From: Verrucomicrobiia bacterium
Lineage (GTDB): Bacteria; Verrucomicrobiota; Verrucomicrobiia; CAIQCK01
NCBI GenBank assembly: GCA_041651735.1
Contig: JBAZIR010000001.1
Span: 799-64,798 of the forward strand
Length of the DNA: 64,000 bases
Direction: 5' to 3'
The notes below the pieces were generated by a model. It was not told the DNA's origin and made no database searches. It was given only the letters and a program-made list of their open reading frames with translations. Shown here piece after piece: positions 53,706 through 61,210 of this stretch (position 1 is the stretch's first letter; every line of letters begins with the position of its first letter). The position numbers and the translations under genes were made by a program.

Positions 53706-53821
53706 GAAGACTCCCTTGATGTTGAGACTCGACTCAATAACTCAAACCAGCGCTGTTCCTTCGGGTGGACAGAATTAACAACTCTCGTCCTTTTGCTCCT
53801 GACAGGATCCAGAAGAATTTT

Positions 53822-55093
53822 ATGAACACATCACGTCGTTGTTTTCTTCAGTCGTCGGCCGCGTTTTTGGGCGCCGGTTCCGTGTCGGCTGCCGATTCCA
53901 CCCGGGCCGAAGATCCGCGCCAGCATTATTTCGACGCCTTCTATTACAAGGAGCCGCCTGCGTTCCAGTTCGAGTATCCGTTCGACGGAGGCATTCTCCA
54001 GGAAGGCTGCGGCTATCCTGTCTTGGGCGCCGAGATGGGAACCGACGGCGTCAAACGCCTCAAGGTCCATGTCGTCGTCAAGGCTTCCGGCGTGTCGAAT
54101 CTGGAAGTAGTCATGCCCGAAGGACAGGTCGTTCCGACAAGCATGGTATCCGGCCTGTACATGGGCACGGTCTTGCTCAAGGAGCGCGTCACGCCGATCA
54201 AGGCTCGGGGCAAGCGCAACGGCAAGCAGGTCGAAACCGTTTGCCGGGTCGTCTGGGCGAAAAACGTCTATAAGCGCTACCGGTGCTACATTGATGACCA
54301 CAGTTTCTTTTTCCGCGACATCCTGAAGAATAATTACAAGAGTCTTTTCGACTGTTTCTATCTGGCCAAGTTACGGGAACTGAACCGGCGCTATAAAACG
54401 AAGTTCAACCTGAACTGTTTCAACTCAACGCCGGAACGGGATTTCACCCTTTCGATGTTTCCGGATAAGTACAAGCCGGAGTTCGAAGACAACGCCGACT
54501 GGCTCCGGCTGGCGTTTCATTCGGAAAACGAATTCCCGGGTGAGCCGTATCGCGAAGCGCCGCCGGAAAAGCTCGCGGCGGACTTCGACCTGGTTGCCAA
54601 AGAACTTAAGCGGATCGCCGGAAAGGCCTACACTGCCGGCCTGCAGATCCATTTCGCGATGGTTCGGGCCGATTCCTACAAAGTGTTGGCGCAGCGGGGC
54701 GTAAAAATGCTCCAGACAAGTGGCAGGAAACATCCATCGTCCGGCGATAAGTTCTGTGACTTCATGTTGCCGAACTCGATTACCGCCTACATCCGCGAGA
54801 ACCAGGGCTGGATGGATTTCGATTCCGGCGTCATTTTCTACAATGGAGCCTTGCCTGCGACCTGCGAATGGACTCCGGTTGAGCAGACGATTCCCCTCAT
54901 GCATCGCAAGCTCGACAACCCCAAACTAAATTCCCTGATCAACATCGCCGGACACGAGCAGTACTGGTGGCCCTTTTACAAAAACTACAAGAAGGACAAC
55001 TTTGATCGTTGGGAAGCGGCACTCCGTTACGTCACCGAACAAGGTTATAAACCGATTTGGATCGAGGACGGTTTCTTCGGCGGTGCCGAATGA
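53822..55093 (+). CDS. exported hypothetical protein (twin-arginine leader), family unknown
   Basis: MNTSRRCFLQSSAAFLGAGSVSA Tat motif. 423 aa, locally AT-richer coding. The pattern YIDDHSFFF / AFHSENE / AGHEQYWWP is only weakly reminiscent of NodB-like deacetylase folds. Confidence 0.55.
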   Translation: MNTSRRCFLQSSAAFLGAGSVSAADSTRAEDPRQHYFDAFYYKEPPAFQFEYPFDGGILQEGCGYPVLGAEMGTDGVKRLKVHVVVKASGVSNLEVVMPEGQVVPTSMVSGLYMGTVLLKERVTPIKARGKRNGKQVETVCRVVWAKNVYKRYRCYIDDHSFFFRDILKNNYKSLFDCFYLAKLRELNRRYKTKFNLNCFNSTPERDFTLSMFPDKYKPEFEDNADWLRLAFHSENEFPGEPYREAPPEKLAADFDLVAKELKRIAGKAYTAGLQIHFAMVRADSYKVLAQRGVKMLQTSGRKHPSSGDKFCDFMLPNSITAYIRENQGWMDFDSGVIFYNGALPATCEWTPVEQTIPLMHRKLDNPKLNSLINIAGHEQYWWPFYKNYKKDNFDRWEAALRYVTEQGYKPIWIEDGFFGGAE

Positions 55094-56904: not shown

Positions 56905-58272
56905 ATGAAAAAGACATTACTGGTCATTGCTTTGGTGACAGCGGTTTCGCGCGCGGCGGAGCCTCAGCATGCGGTGGAGACGTGCCCGGCGAGCAGCGCT
57001 GCACAGGCGGAGTATGTTCTCTACGATGATTTCTCGTGGCCCAACACCACTCTCGACCGGGCGAAATGGTGGCGAGGAGGTTTGGATGGCGTGGACGGCA
57101 CAAACACCATATTGAACGAGTCGGATCTTACGTCTTCGGTGATGTTCTCTGGAGGTGACTTCAAGTTCGTGATCGGCGGGCCCTCCGCCTCGTCGCAGGG
57201 GCTTTTTGGTTTGGGTGACATTGACGACGGTGACCCGTTCCTCATTCTTTCCGACAAGGGGGCAGGCTGGCGTTTTCACGTTCGAAGCGGCTCGAAGACT
57301 TACACAGGCCCGGTCATTGCGTCCTCGCTGGCCAAGGGTGATGTGGTTGTGTTCCATTGGGACTCGAACGGTTCCAGCGTCTCGATCAACGGAGTAGTGA
57401 AGGACTCGCAGTCAACCGTGCATCCGCCCCACATGCCGCTGACCATGCTGGAGTGGACCGGCACTGCGACCCAGCCGGATAGGGCCAGTGGAAGGATGGT
57501 CCTGGACTCTGTCAGCTATTCAGCTACCCCGGTTTCCAGTCCGAAGCCTTCGACGACGACTTCTGTCGAGTCAACCGGGACGAGAGTGTTATCCGCAAAG
57601 CTGGTGGAGGACACTTTCGTTGACTGCTCAAACCCCGGCACAAACGTCAATGGAAGCACGCATCAGATTTACATTCGAAACAGCCGATATCATCCCGACC
57701 TCACCGGGGCCGGAAAAACATTGGACGCAGGCCATTTGGGATTGGTTCAGTTTGCCTTGCCTCAACTTCCCGCTGGCTGGAATGTGACCGCCGCGCGGCT
57801 TGCGGGTGAGGTTGCTCAGAACCATAAGTCGTATGGCATGCCCGGTTGGGCGCCAGCCAGGCCGATAGAGCTGGAGGTGCTGGGTCTCGGCGTGAATCCT
57901 GATCTTGCCGCGGTTACCTACAATGCCGTGCATGATGCCACGGGCCACGGCGTGATAACCGATTACTCGGCTTCAGGCAGTGTCAATTTCACATTCGGCA
58001 GTCAGGCTCAGTCGCTGGAGGTCTTGCGATTCAATACGTCCGCGACACCTGCCGGCAGTCTTTTGCAGTTCCCGGATCCAGAGGGCAAGCTGTGCGCATT
58101 CGTGCGAAGCAAGATCAGTCGCACCGGACCCGTGGTTATCACACTCGCCATAGGTCCGGGTCGAACGCAGGCTGTATCGGGGATGGACTGCGACTTCAAG
58201 TTTTACGCCAAGGAGAATACTGCCGGCCGGTCTCCCATGTCGCTCACGCTGGAACTAAAACAGGTGCCGTGA
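56905..58272 (+). CDS. secreted hypothetical protein, two beta-rich modules (LamG/jelly-roll-like N-terminal; DNRLRE/CBM-like C-terminal, from memory)
   Basis: Signal peptide MKKTLLVIALVTAVSRA, Ser/Thr/Pro linker SSPKPSTTTS. Lower-GC gene. No catalytic motif recognised. Confidence 0.5.
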   Translation: MKKTLLVIALVTAVSRAAEPQHAVETCPASSAAQAEYVLYDDFSWPNTTLDRAKWWRGGLDGVDGTNTILNESDLTSSVMFSGGDFKFVIGGPSASSQGLFGLGDIDDGDPFLILSDKGAGWRFHVRSGSKTYTGPVIASSLAKGDVVVFHWDSNGSSVSINGVVKDSQSTVHPPHMPLTMLEWTGTATQPDRASGRMVLDSVSYSATPVSSPKPSTTTSVESTGTRVLSAKLVEDTFVDCSNPGTNVNGSTHQIYIRNSRYHPDLTGAGKTLDAGHLGLVQFALPQLPAGWNVTAARLAGEVAQNHKSYGMPGWAPARPIELEVLGLGVNPDLAAVTYNAVHDATGHGVITDYSASGSVNFTFGSQAQSLEVLRFNTSATPAGSLLQFPDPEGKLCAFVRSKISRTGPVVITLAIGPGRTQAVSGMDCDFKFYAKENTAGRSPMSLTLELKQVP

Positions 58273-58408: not shown

Positions 58409-58450
58409 GTGATTCATGACTTGTGACTCGTGACTCGTGATTCGTGTGCG
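58409..58450. repeat. tandem heptamer tract (GTGACTC)n
   Basis: GTGATTC ATGACTT GTGACTC GTGACTC GTGATTC GTGTGCG: six 7-nt units read directly. Confidence 0.85.
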
Positions 58451-58633
58451 TCCATTTTCATACGTTGCGGCGATCTGGGTTTGGCCTTGACGGTTTGGAA
58501 CACGGGCGTAGGCTGCGCAGCAGCAAGGTGAGAGCGTATCGCGAGAGTACCAAGGAGCGAAAGGCAACGCCCGGATTTGCACAATTACTGTCGGCCGGCT
58601 GCAACTGACATACATGACTGAAGGAGATTCCCC

Positions 58634-59788
58634 ATGAAGACACACAAGATCAGCCGAACTCAATTCGTCCGCGAAGGAGCATGTCTTGCGGCCGGGGCAT
58701 TCTTCAGCGACGTGTTCGCACCGCAAACCGCCTGCGCGCAGGAGAACCGGCCGCAATGCGCATCTCAACCCTCCGGTTGTCCCGGGGCGGCCGCTGCCGG
58801 GAAATCCGGTTTCACGTTGCGGCCTTACGAACTCCTTTGCCTCGTGTGTTCCCTCGGCGGGGACCGGGGCTGTCCTCAGAATGCGAAACTCGCGGCTGCG
58901 CTGGAGAAAATCCGGCGGCAGCCGGACATTCCGCTGACGCTATGCTGCAATGCGGGCGATGTTTACTCCTACCAAGACCCGGGCACCGAAGCGGACACCG
59001 CGGAGGGCCGCGATTACAATCGCAAGCGCGACCTCGACATCCTGCTGAAGCTCGACGCCGCGCCCGGCGCCACGCAACCGGCGCGGATTTGGCTGGCCAT
59101 GCTGCTCAAACGGATTTCCACGGTGGCGGGACTATGTGCCTACAGCAGCGTCACGTCGGAGGCCTGGAAAGGTTGTGCCAAAGCCGCGAGCGGCTGTTAC
59201 GAACGGGCGCAGAAGCAGGGCTTGACCCTGCTCATCCCGCCCCGCGACGAGGCGGAGATGACGCGCGAGAAGGAAGCTTCGATCGCCGCGCTGAAATCCG
59301 CCAAAGAAGTCACCATCCGGCCTCATATCCTTGTTTGTGCGGTGTGCCAGTATGGCGGCGGCACACGTCCCCCATTCAAGCCTGACAATCTCCCGGAGCT
59401 TTTGCAGATGATCCTCACCGAGCGGCCGGACGTGCCGGTCAAATTCGTGCGCGGCGCGGATTGGATGATGTGCGCGCCCTGTCCCTCGCGCGTCGCGGCG
59501 ACCAATGCCTGCGTGTGCGGCGCGATCAAGTCGGGTGGCCTATACAACGAGTTGAAGGATCTCAACGTGCTTCAACGTCTCGGGCTGACTTTTGGTTCCA
59601 CCATGAAGGCTCGCGACCTGTGTCTGCTGATTTTTGAGAAAATCCCGACCGTGACAGGCGTGTGCGCGCTGGATATCGATGGCTTGGCCGCGCAGTCCAT
59701 CTGGCGCGACGGCTGCGGCGGCAAACCTCACCCCGCTTACGACAAGGGTCGCAAAGCGTTGCTCGAGAAACTGGGCGGGAAAGCCTGA
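58634..59788 (+). CDS. exported Cys-rich protein made of two homologous modules (DUF1284-like, from memory)
   Basis: Leader MKTHKISRTQFVREGACLAAGAFF (Tat-like, but with a single Arg). Module 1 has LRPYELLCLVCSLGG...STVAGLCA; module 2 has IRPHILVCAVCQYGGG...PTVTGVCA. 21 Cys in 384 aa. Confidence 0.6.
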   Translation: MKTHKISRTQFVREGACLAAGAFFSDVFAPQTACAQENRPQCASQPSGCPGAAAAGKSGFTLRPYELLCLVCSLGGDRGCPQNAKLAAALEKIRRQPDIPLTLCCNAGDVYSYQDPGTEADTAEGRDYNRKRDLDILLKLDAAPGATQPARIWLAMLLKRISTVAGLCAYSSVTSEAWKGCAKAASGCYERAQKQGLTLLIPPRDEAEMTREKEASIAALKSAKEVTIRPHILVCAVCQYGGGTRPPFKPDNLPELLQMILTERPDVPVKFVRGADWMMCAPCPSRVAATNACVCGAIKSGGLYNELKDLNVLQRLGLTFGSTMKARDLCLLIFEKIPTVTGVCALDIDGLAAQSIWRDGCGGKPHPAYDKGRKALLEKLGGKA

Positions 59789-59854
59789 AGACCGCCGCCA
59801 TCCACTGCGTATCAACCCGACTCGCTCAACTGACTAAAGGAGTTCCCTCTCCCC

Positions 59855-61210
59855 ATGAACAACCAACTCACCCGCCGCCATTTCATTCAAACCGCCGCCG
59901 CAGGCTCCGCCGCGCTCATCTGGCTTGGTGGGCACAGCGGCCCGAACGTCTTTGCAGCGGACGCCGCCAAACCCGCCGTCCTCGGCGGCAAGCCCGCCCA
60001 CACGGGCGGCTGGCCGAAGTGGCCGGAGTGGCATCAGGAATGGGAGGCCCAGGTCCTCGACGTGCTCCGCAGCGGAAAATGGTGCCGCGCAGGCGTTGGC
60101 GGCCAGGTGCCGGAGTTCGAGGCCGCATGGGCCAAACTCCTCGGCGTCAAACGCGCCCTCGCCACGTCCAGCGGCACCACCGCGCTCATCACCAGCCTCC
60201 ATGTCGTGGGAGTGGACGCCGGCGACGAAGTCATCGTCTCGCCTTTTACTTTCAACGCCGCCTACAACGTCATCCTGACCCAGAAAGCCCTGCCGGTGTT
60301 TGCCGACACCGACCCCGAGACGCTCACGATGTGTCCGAAGTCCATCGAGAGCCGGATCACTGAGCGCACCAAGGCCATCCTGCCGGTCCACATTTACGGC
60401 ATGCCCTGCGACATGGACCCGATCAACGCCATCGCCAAAAAACACAAGCTCGCCGTCGTGGAGGACGCCTGCCAGGCGAACATGGCGGAATACAAAGGCC
60501 GCAAGTGCGGCACGCTCGGCGACCTCGGCTGCTTCAGTTTCCAGAACTCCAAGCACATGCCCGCCGGCGAAGGCGGCGCGGTCGTTGGCATGAGCGACGA
60601 GCTGCTGGACCGCTGTCATTCGTTCCACAACTGCGGCCGTTCCGTCGGCAGCTTCAAGGGCCACGGCTGTTTCGCCCGCGGCACCAACTACAGGATGCAA
60701 CATTTCCAAGCCGCCATGCTCCTGCAACGGTTCGACTATTTGCAGAAGGAAACCCAGATTCGTCATGCCAACTCCAGCTATCTCAACGCCAACCTTGCGA
60801 AGATTCCCGGCATCGCCCCCGCGCGTCTGCCGGAGAACAGTTGGGGGACGTATTATCTGTTCCCGTTCCTATACGACGCGCAGCAATTCAACGGACTGCC
60901 GCGCGCCAGGTTCATTCGCGCGCTCGGCGCGGAAGGAATCCCCTGCGGCGCCGGCTACGGTGAACAGTATAACGACGGCATCATCGACGAGGCGATCAAC
61001 TCGACCGGTTACAAGCGCCTCTGGAGCGCCGACCGGCTGAAGGCGTATCGGGAGAGCTTCAACGAACTGAAGGGCACCAAGAAAGCCTGCGAGACGGTCG
61101 TGTGCTTTTCCCACAGCCTGCTCATGGCCGACCGCAGCGCCATGGACCACATCCTCGACGCCATCCGCAAGATCCAAGCCCACAGCGCCGAGTTGGCAAA
61201 GAAGGCGTGA
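59855..61210 (+). CDS. DegT/DnrJ/EryC1/StrS-family PLP aminotransferase with twin-arginine leader (paralogue 2)
   Basis: MNNQLTRRHFIQTAAAGSAALIWL Tat motif and FSFQNSKHMPAGEGGAV PLP-lysine motif. 451 aa, about 80% identical by eye to 52350-53705. Confidence 0.85.
   Translation: MNNQLTRRHFIQTAAAGSAALIWLGGHSGPNVFAADAAKPAVLGGKPAHTGGWPKWPEWHQEWEAQVLDVLRSGKWCRAGVGGQVPEFEAAWAKLLGVKRALATSSGTTALITSLHVVGVDAGDEVIVSPFTFNAAYNVILTQKALPVFADTDPETLTMCPKSIESRITERTKAILPVHIYGMPCDMDPINAIAKKHKLAVVEDACQANMAEYKGRKCGTLGDLGCFSFQNSKHMPAGEGGAVVGMSDELLDRCHSFHNCGRSVGSFKGHGCFARGTNYRMQHFQAAMLLQRFDYLQKETQIRHANSSYLNANLAKIPGIAPARLPENSWGTYYLFPFLYDAQQFNGLPRARFIRALGAEGIPCGAGYGEQYNDGIIDEAINSTGYKRLWSADRLKAYRESFNELKGTKKACETVVCFSHSLLMADRSAMDHILDAIRKIQAHSAELAKKA

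Follow-up and report, generated by a model that had tools for sequence, protein, structure and literature searches.

The DNA analysed here, called the window in the following, is a stretch of 64,000 nucleotides (nt) from a Verrucomicrobiia bacterium (GenBank assembly GCA_041651735.1, contig JBAZIR010000001.1, positions 799 to 64,798 of the forward strand). It contains a gene for a cysteine-rich protein of 384 amino acids (aa) that is built from two homologous modules, the second of which resembles the Pfam family DUF1284, and we refer to its product as the double-DUF1284 protein (Table 1). The leader of this protein begins with MKTHKISRTQFVREGACLAAGAFF and shows one Arg at the motif position of a twin-arginine translocation (Tat) signal, and the mature protein comprises about 320–325 aa. 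The same locus encodes one ThuA-like and one GHL6-like protein, a sulfatase that carries an SGSH_C domain, and two DegT proteins with Tat leaders (DegT1 and DegT2).

That the protein consists of two homologous modules had been claimed in a sequence-only reading of the window, and this claim holds. Alignment of the two halves by BLASTP (residues ~59–223 against 224–384) gave E = 2e-13 with 28% identity over 148 columns and put the segment pairs that had been picked out by eye exactly in register. At the level of the family, comparison of the module 1 profile (67 sequences) with the module 2 profile (81 sequences) by hhalign resulted in a probability of 99.8% and E = 5.4e-30 over 154 columns, and the duplication is therefore a family trait and not a chance similarity. 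Listing of the positions also reproduced the reported number of 21 cysteines. The family goes back to the ancient duplication, within one protein, of a Cys/His-rich alpha/beta domain of ~150 aa, and we regard both the duplication and the family assignment of the 384-aa protein as practically certain.

The family DUF1284 (PF06935) comprises single-domain proteins of ~100–130 aa from bacteria and archaea. A resemblance to it had been suggested for the window protein and could be confirmed for module 2. The sole match in a Pfam scan was PF06935 at residues 254–337, within module 2 (E = 1.1e-3, 19.8 bits); the score stays under the Pfam gathering cut-off of 25 bits. A scan of the 384-aa protein against NCBIfam gave no match. 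Many orthologues do pass the PF06935 cut-off (for example P0210 with 32.8, P0196 with 35.8 and P0129 with 25.7 bits), as does a paralogue on contig C238 of the window genome with 25.8 bits, and a precomputed PF06935 label is attached to about half of the homologues listed. When the alignment of the tandem family (A1) was compared by hhalign with a bona fide DUF1284 protein of the same genome, the match fell into module 2 with a probability of 96.1% and E = 3.4e-9 over 118 columns, and module 1 reached only 54% and E = 1.3e-4. Module 2 shows the DUF1284 His/Cys pattern R-x-H-x-L...C-x-x-C...C...C...C, and the CxxC...C triad is absent from module 1, which has C-N-A-G-D-V..Y-Q-D-P-G in place of C-x-x-C-P...C. 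Judged by these alignments, module 2 is a divergent but genuine DUF1284 domain and module 1 is a degenerate copy that keeps the framework cysteines C69, C72, C168 and C181 plus its own C105. With two modules and 384 aa the protein differs from the single small domain of DUF1284 proteins, and the tandem form has no Pfam or NCBIfam model of its own. The literature collection that was searched contained no paper on DUF1284 (PF06935, COG3543, IPR009702). What is known is thus DUF1284 as a Pfam entry, and what is new is a tandem, often Tat-exported subfamily for which no model, literature or structural relative was found.

The window genome (G000) encodes two further tandem paralogues, on contigs C308 (60% identical) and C238 (38% identical), as well as a single-domain DUF1284 protein of 196 aa with 51.7 bits to PF06935 (contig C65, locus L092, 1438–2028, minus strand). 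The latter carries a canonical Tat leader, TTRRGFIKTASALTGAAV, and its gene is located 1 nt upstream of a same-strand 285-aa open reading frame (ORF) that appears carbon–nitrogen hydrolase-like by eye, so that this exported DUF1284 protein looks like part of a two-gene unit. Canonical single DUF1284 proteins were found in 3 of 401 genomes of the phylum, which is too rare for a context analysis.

The AlphaFold2 model of the whole protein, calculated with an alignment of 23 sequences, reached a predicted local distance difference test (pLDDT) value of 80.4 and a predicted template modelling (pTM) score of 0.74. It shows two similar beta-alpha modules with leader and linker disordered, the residues 17–56 having a pLDDT below 50. 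Module 2 alone (81 sequences) was modelled with a pLDDT of 90.3 and a pTM of 0.86. A Foldseek search of the PDB returned 0 matches for the whole model and none at E ≤ 0.001 for the module 2 model, the best having E = 7.8 and 10 with a template modelling (TM) score of 0.13; Foldseek against BFVD gave nothing under E = 3.6, and PDB sequences searched with the family profile yielded nothing significant. Thioredoxin-like [2Fe-2S] ferredoxins such as NuoE and Aquifex Fd4, in which a beta-strand ends in a Cys and is followed by a helix and later by a C-x-x-C-P-like pair, had been considered as relatives for this likeness and were dropped in view of these module 2 results. As the confident model matches no solved fold, structure determination combined with metal analysis would establish a new class of domain.

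The 21 cysteines are located at positions 17, 34, 42, 49, 69, 72, 80, 104, 105, 168, 181, 188, 235, 238, 280, 283, 293, 295, 330, 344 and 361. Twelve of them recur in 70 or more of the 77 non-redundant relatives compared, namely those given for module 1 in Table 1 and C235, C238, C280, C283, C293, C344 and C361 in module 2. The remaining nine are lineage-specific and four of these belong to the leader or linker; C42 and C49 precede the compared mature domains, and the alignment shows gaps there in all 77 relatives. Within the 81 sequences of alignment A4, which includes the bona fide DUF1284 protein, H231, C280, C283, C293, D309, C344 and C361 are invariant, C235 and C238 being nearly invariant in module 2, and H231 and D309 are each found in 95% or more of the 77 relatives. 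Module 2 thus keeps every family-invariant candidate ligand, these seven residues plus C235. Further invariant polar residues include N106, Q114, D121, K131, R132, D133, R151, E190, R204, K213, Q239, R245, D251, N252 and D276, a set that looks more like that of an enzyme or a tightly constrained cofactor site than that of a simple binding module. Selenocysteine in place of Cys was considered and rejected, as the in-frame stops seen in three distant genomic matches are either upstream of the start or fall on a residue other than Cys in what is probably a pseudogene.

Members of the family without a leader occur in Armatimonadota, Bathyarchaeota, Brockarchaeota and others and retain all conserved cysteines. 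Since these forms are presumably cytoplasmic, since the extensions of other members that resemble signal peptides are nearly all of the Tat type with no Sec-type (general secretory) leader seen among them, and since the hosts come mostly from anoxic habitats (digesters, fens, groundwater and deep lake water according to the titles of the genome records), the cysteines point to a cofactor rather than to disulfides. We consider it probable that the conserved Cys/His residues bind iron–sulfur (Fe-S) clusters or another metal.

A word-index search identified 622 homologues among 8000 candidates scored, most of them 50–60% identical over the whole mature length and the best one, from a Verrucomicrobia metagenome-assembled genome (MAG), 97% identical. 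An exhaustive search of representatives at 50% identity gave 209 clusters at E ≤ 1e-3. Bacterial loci were found in Verrucomicrobiota, Kiritimatiellota, Planctomycetota, Lentisphaerota, Armatimonadota, Hydrogenedentota, Bacteroidota (including the isolate Mariniphaga sediminis SY21, locus L091), Actinomycetota and Omnitrophota, and archaeal loci in Bathyarchaeota, Brockarchaeota and a MAG labelled Nitrososphaerota. The archaeal locus that was inspected is genuinely archaeal, with TFIIE-alpha, aS21 and Hjc present. A maximum-likelihood tree of 78 mature domains shows the phyla mixed throughout, identity stays at 50–60% across phyla and domains, and the family is present in only 9 of 301 sampled genomes of the window's own phylum; from this distribution we infer a horizontally spread accessory gene. 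The archaeal copies (L011 and L032 from Bathyarchaeota, L047 and L063) are 50–59% identical by tblastn to the verrucomicrobial protein and nested in the tree among bacterial sequences, which implies inter-domain transfer. In L011 the double-DUF1284 gene follows an ADP-ribosylglycohydrolase gene with a 30-nt gap.

Adjacent pairs of double-DUF1284 paralogues, arranged in tandem or divergently, exist in the five loci L007 (10001–12319), L044, L059, L072 and L078, and the pair in L007 consists of a copy with a single-Arg leader followed by one with a short, non-Tat N-terminus. Moreover, the tandem DUF1284 part can be fused to a C-terminal domain of ~300 aa, as in P0208, P0221, P0240 and P0272 (630–715 aa; L100 8001–9896, L101 2012–4159). 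This domain has no Pfam match even at E ≤ 10 and its sole relatives are other fusion proteins; a CBM9-like identity was an unsupported guess. In L101 the fusion gene is located between a gene for a DUF4838 protein (8-nt gap) and one for a 1497-aa protein with a weak CBM9 match. Fusions to TruB and GcvP look like gene-call artefacts or one-offs and were discarded as Rosetta-stone clues.

The leaders of the family exist in three states, being canonical twin-arginine (RR), conserved single-arginine (single-R) or missing. RR leaders such as MERREFLQCGGLCG, MDRRVFLK and SRRKFISNS account for at least 41 distinct sequences. The single-R form reads [ST]-R-[SGTN]-x-F-[LV]-R-x-G-x-C-L-A-A-G, and its core [ST]-R-x-x-F-[LV]-R is common to 38 distinct leaders. 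The window protein with its S-R-T-Q-F-V-R belongs to the latter form and has no consecutive arginines. It had been described earlier as carrying a Tat-like leader with one Arg, and this description is now backed by RR at the homologous position in sister orthologues and by the RR leaders of all three other DUF1284 proteins of the window genome (MDRRVFLK and SRRAMLK in the paralogues, TRRGFIK in the single-domain protein). The state of the leader changes at least 13 times on the tree, at least seven of these changes being forced by well-supported branches, and the RR orthologue L014 is sister to the single-R L009, beside the pair of the window. The hydrophobic regions (h-regions) of the two forms differ as well, with a mean peak Kyte–Doolittle value of 1.79 for single-R (n = 38) against 1.39 for RR leaders (n = 41); the Mann–Whitney p of 3e-7 is no true probability, as the sequences are related. 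For the window protein the peak value is 1.65 over 13 residues of GACLAAGAFFSDVFAP. Genome-wide, 81 strict [ST]RRxF[LIV][RKQ] leaders stand against 3 single-R ones. Taken together, the leader motifs make Tat export of the 384-aa protein moderately probable.

Another single-R leader of the window genome, MTTITRGSFLKQSLIATAGASLPWTWARAAGA, was found on contig C242 (plus strand, about residue 1081 of frame 0) and belongs to a protein of 528 aa; the mature part of this protein starts with IRVGVIGF, which resembles a Gfo/Idh/MocA Rossmann fold. The Bacteroidales members (L080–L091) combine the canonical Tat motif SRRKFI with a lipobox-like ..[ST]SC ~20 residues later, which suggests that they are Tat-exported lipoproteins.

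DegT2 belongs to the family DegT_DnrJ_EryC1 (E = 1.5e-88) and also matches TAT_signal weakly. The distance of 66 nt on the same strand that had been given in the sequence-only reading is correct (the stop codon ends at 59788 and the ATG of DegT2 begins at 59855), and the spacer shows no terminator-like site. The conserved pairing with an exported pyridoxal phosphate (PLP) enzyme proposed there did not withstand a comparison of the neighbours in 75 non-redundant lineages besides the window's own, for which genes were called crudely as longest ORFs in a greedy manner with the target gene fixed. DegT was absent from the 64 downstream and 51 upstream immediate neighbours in these lineages; that is, it is adjacent in 0 of 75 of them, and the reading itself had named such a lack of conserved linkage as speaking against it. 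With DegT2 as tblastn query the adjacency was found only in the window and in L012 and L013, whose orthologues are 94–100% identical. DegT-like genes with 34–36% identity occur 3–6 kb away in four other lineages, often on the opposite strand. The window genome contains 15 DegT/DnrJ/EryC1 homologues, and with ~15 DegT genes per genome and a 12-kb neighbourhood at 76 loci ~2 occurrences are expected by chance, so that four are unremarkable. Many of the 15 homologues are found in open frames of 450–536 aa, ~60–150 aa above the usual length, and the DegT genes with long, possibly Tat-type leaders may represent a large paralogous family in this genome. The adjacency to DegT2 arose in this lineage, probably when the gene was relocated into a mosaic locus, and does not represent a conserved functional pairing. 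The 384-aa gene is not to be taken for a component of a DegT module.

Regarding the other neighbours, a divergent gene for an AraC-family regulator lies directly upstream in L007, L008, L009, L014 and L026, which are the nearest lineages to that of the window in the tree, and the one regulator that was checked has an AraC_binding/cupin domain of the sugar type. In ten lineages from three clades the gene is flanked on the same strand, often by several copies, by a family of ~770–1550 aa (Table 1). This family shows only a GH20b/GH67N-like N-terminal match and, at the profile level, a weak similarity to GH20 structures (E = 0.018); it may be an undescribed glycoside-hydrolase-like family. Its consensus holds a conserved C-x-S...C-x-x-C motif. 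A loose set of carbohydrate-active genes recurs among the neighbours as well, comprising GH20, GH2, GH31 and GH36 proteins, beta-helix lyases, heparinase II/III, DUF2961, DUF4838, DUF4434, Gfo/Idh/MocA and AP_endonuc_2 proteins, PIG-L and SGNH esterases. A corrinoid or methyltransferase link, prompted by URO-D-like neighbour genes, was given up, as no corrinoid-binding protein was seen in the loci examined.

Within the window, the gene directly upstream (56905–58272) encodes a 455-aa protein with no Pfam match, whose relatives among the fetched loci occur only in the window's own lineage. The 361-nt region between this gene and the double-DUF1284 ORF has no match to a riboswitch or RNA family in Rfam at E ≤ 1 and contains a tandem repeat of the heptamer GTGACTC (5.4 copies, 58409–58446, Tandem Repeats Finder score 48). 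A 442-aa protein with a Tat leader and no Pfam match is encoded behind DegT1 (53765–55093).

Table 1: Features of the double-DUF1284 gene and its surroundings in the window, and GH20b-like genes flanking the family in other loci.
Feature	Position	Strand	Remarks
Shine–Dalgarno (SD)-like AAGGAG	58621..58626	+	7 nt before ATG; read off the sequence
Double-DUF1284 ORF	58634..59788	+	384 aa, stop codon included; ATG start; ORF list and translation
Leader, residues 1–35	58634..58738	+	n-region, h-region GACLAAGAFFSDVFAP, possible A-C-A cleavage site before Q36 (by eye)
Single-Arg Tat-like motif S-R-T-Q-F-V-R, residues 7–13	58652..58672	+	
Low-complexity linker, residues 36–58	58739..58807	+	C42 and C49 lineage-specific; low model confidence
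Module 1, residues 59–218	58808..59287	+	degenerate DUF1284-like copy; conserved C69, C72, C105, C168, C181
Module 2, residues 219–384	59288..59785	+	divergent DUF1284 domain
Spacer to DegT2, 66 nt	59789..59854	+	AAGGAG at 59837–59842
DegT2, DegT/DnrJ/EryC1 aminotransferase with Tat leader	59855..61210	+	not counted as functional part
GH20b-like flanking genes, L066	921–3293, 4440–6821, 6991–9363		
GH20b-like flanking genes, L055	3578–5887, 7026–9926		
GH20b-like flanking gene, L050	952–5923		
GH20b-like flanking gene, L084	7227–9638		
GH20b-like flanking gene, L046	1196–5827		

From these observations we favour the view that the double-DUF1284 protein is a cofactor-bearing, Tat-exported accessory protein of glycan catabolism, a reading in which we place about half of our confidence. 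The Cys/His set would bind one or more Fe-S clusters or other Cys-ligated metals that are loaded in the cytoplasm, and the folded holoprotein would then be exported by Tat via the single-Arg signal, its missing Arg being offset by hydrophobicity. Outside the cytoplasm it would serve glycan catabolism, either as a metallo- or redox enzyme working on its own or as a module for electron transfer, with sugar-responsive control of the AraC type being probable in the closest relatives. For the glycan role taken by itself the case is evenly balanced. Several observations weigh against this proposal. Of the 77 relatives, 7 have another residue in place of C238 and 4 in place of C69, and therefore the conserved cysteines cannot all be obligate ligands. 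The Tat pathway also exports cofactor-less and zinc proteins, so that its use is no proof of an Fe-S cluster, and the window protein itself has no TAT_signal match in Pfam or NCBIfam. Its single-R, more hydrophobic leader fits a drift to Sec export as well, and such a switch, if real, would argue against a pre-loaded Fe-S cluster. Furthermore, no neighbour is conserved family-wide, any Pfam family being present in at most 3 of 64 downstream and 2 of 51 upstream positions, and the glycan theme among the neighbours stands without a background control in genomes that are rich in carbohydrate-active enzymes anyway.

Two alternatives follow from neighbouring genes. In the first, the double-DUF1284 protein would be co-transcribed and co-exported with DegT2 and serve it, for example as an electron or cofactor partner. 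In favour of this, both genes lie on the same strand with a 66-nt spacer free of terminator-like sites and each has its own SD; L012 and L013, the two closest relatives, share this arrangement, and a DegT gene is found three genes downstream of one distant fused family member. This explanation is nevertheless very improbable, because DegT is next door in none of the 75 other lineages and within 6 kb in only four, near the chance expectation, and because the closest relatives in the tree have the divergent AraC regulator instead. To our knowledge, transaminases using PLP also require no redox partner. A function in supplying Fe-S clusters to, or maturing, one particular Fe-S enzyme such as IspG would account for a few Kiritimatiellota lineages, in which the leaderless gene is located between rseP and ispG or near dxr-rseP-ispG. 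However, this context is limited to two or three of ~76 lineages, about half of the family is exported away from IspG, and a family present in 9 of 301 genomes of the phylum contrasts with an enzyme that is, as far as we know, nearly universal in bacteria with the methylerythritol phosphate (MEP) pathway, which makes this function hardly credible.

The remaining alternatives concern the cysteines themselves. The protein could be a cofactor-free, disulfide-stabilised binding or structural protein that is secreted by Sec, and the one Arg of its leader, the missing TAT_signal match and the higher hydrophobicity of single-R compared with RR leaders, which is the direction expected for Sec signals, would agree with this, as would the 21 cysteines with nine lineage-specific ones, some of them in the linker. 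We consider it distinctly unlikely, as leaderless orthologues in anaerobes and archaea keep all 12 conserved cysteines in a presumably reducing cytoplasm and His231 and Asp309 are invariant along with them. Furthermore, ~40 distinct relatives have canonical RR leaders, and F-[LV]-R of the Tat consensus, which Sec does not require, is strictly kept in all single-R leaders. A hydrolytic enzyme that depends on zinc, has two or three Zn sites of a structural or catalytic kind and plays no redox role overlaps with the cofactor-bearing accessory protein proposed above except for the metal. Sets of Cys, His and Asp whose CxxC knuckles sit where helices begin characterise Zn sites as much as Fe-S sites, many polar residues are invariant, and some Tat substrates are Zn enzymes, the amidases AmiA and AmiC among them. 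An oxygen-sensitive cofactor agrees somewhat better with the predominance of anaerobic hosts, and we regard the zinc enzyme as rather unlikely.

In a more far-reaching proposal, double-DUF1284 proteins would be a new fold class of Fe-S enzymes for redox- or metal-assisted anaerobic glycan breakdown, acting in the cytoplasm or periplasm depending on the lineage and alongside the flanking ~800-aa GH20b-like proteins, with one large subfamily exported by a natural single-Arg Tat signal offset by hydrophobicity. In this full form it is speculative and unlikely to be right. The tandem form is among the best-conserved DUF1284 branches, with 50–60% identity between bacteria and archaea, and it is confined to glycan-degrading, mostly anaerobic lineages and is often Tat-exported. 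It could mark an unrecognised cofactor-dependent step in the extracytoplasmic catabolism of polysaccharides, and its conserved single-Arg leaders offer a natural test of whether hydrophobicity can replace the second Arg in Tat targeting.

Compared with DUF1284 proteins, module 2 shares the R-P/G-H-H/I-L start, the C-x-x-C-P motif, a later single Cys, the D-L..L..LGL helix and the terminal Cys pair. The window protein differs from them in having two domains in tandem with the first one degenerate, and many members of the tandem family carry Tat leaders, some Bacteroidales ones being putative lipoproteins. Tat-exported Fe-S subunits of the ferredoxin type (DmsB, HybA, NrfC) are likewise Cys-rich with a Tat-type leader, and both they and the double-DUF1284 protein are presumed to be loaded with cofactor before export. 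This is a functional analogy only, since neither Pfam nor PDB sequences nor Foldseek relate the two and the double-DUF1284 protein is devoid of CxxCxxCxxxCP ferredoxin motifs; its gene also adjoins no catalytic partner gene and stands alone in most loci. Regarding the leader, it has been shown experimentally that a single Arg is compatible with Tat transport if the signal peptide is made more hydrophobic (Huang & Palmer, mBio 2017, PMC5539426). Like the signals of that study, the single-R leaders described here have one Arg in the n-region, an intact x-F-L-K/R consensus and an h-region more hydrophobic than that of their RR relatives. The published signals are suppressor mutants of E. coli SufI, whereas here the motif is conserved naturally on at least 38 distinct leaders, and this natural combination of a single Arg with raised hydrophobicity fits the experimental finding.

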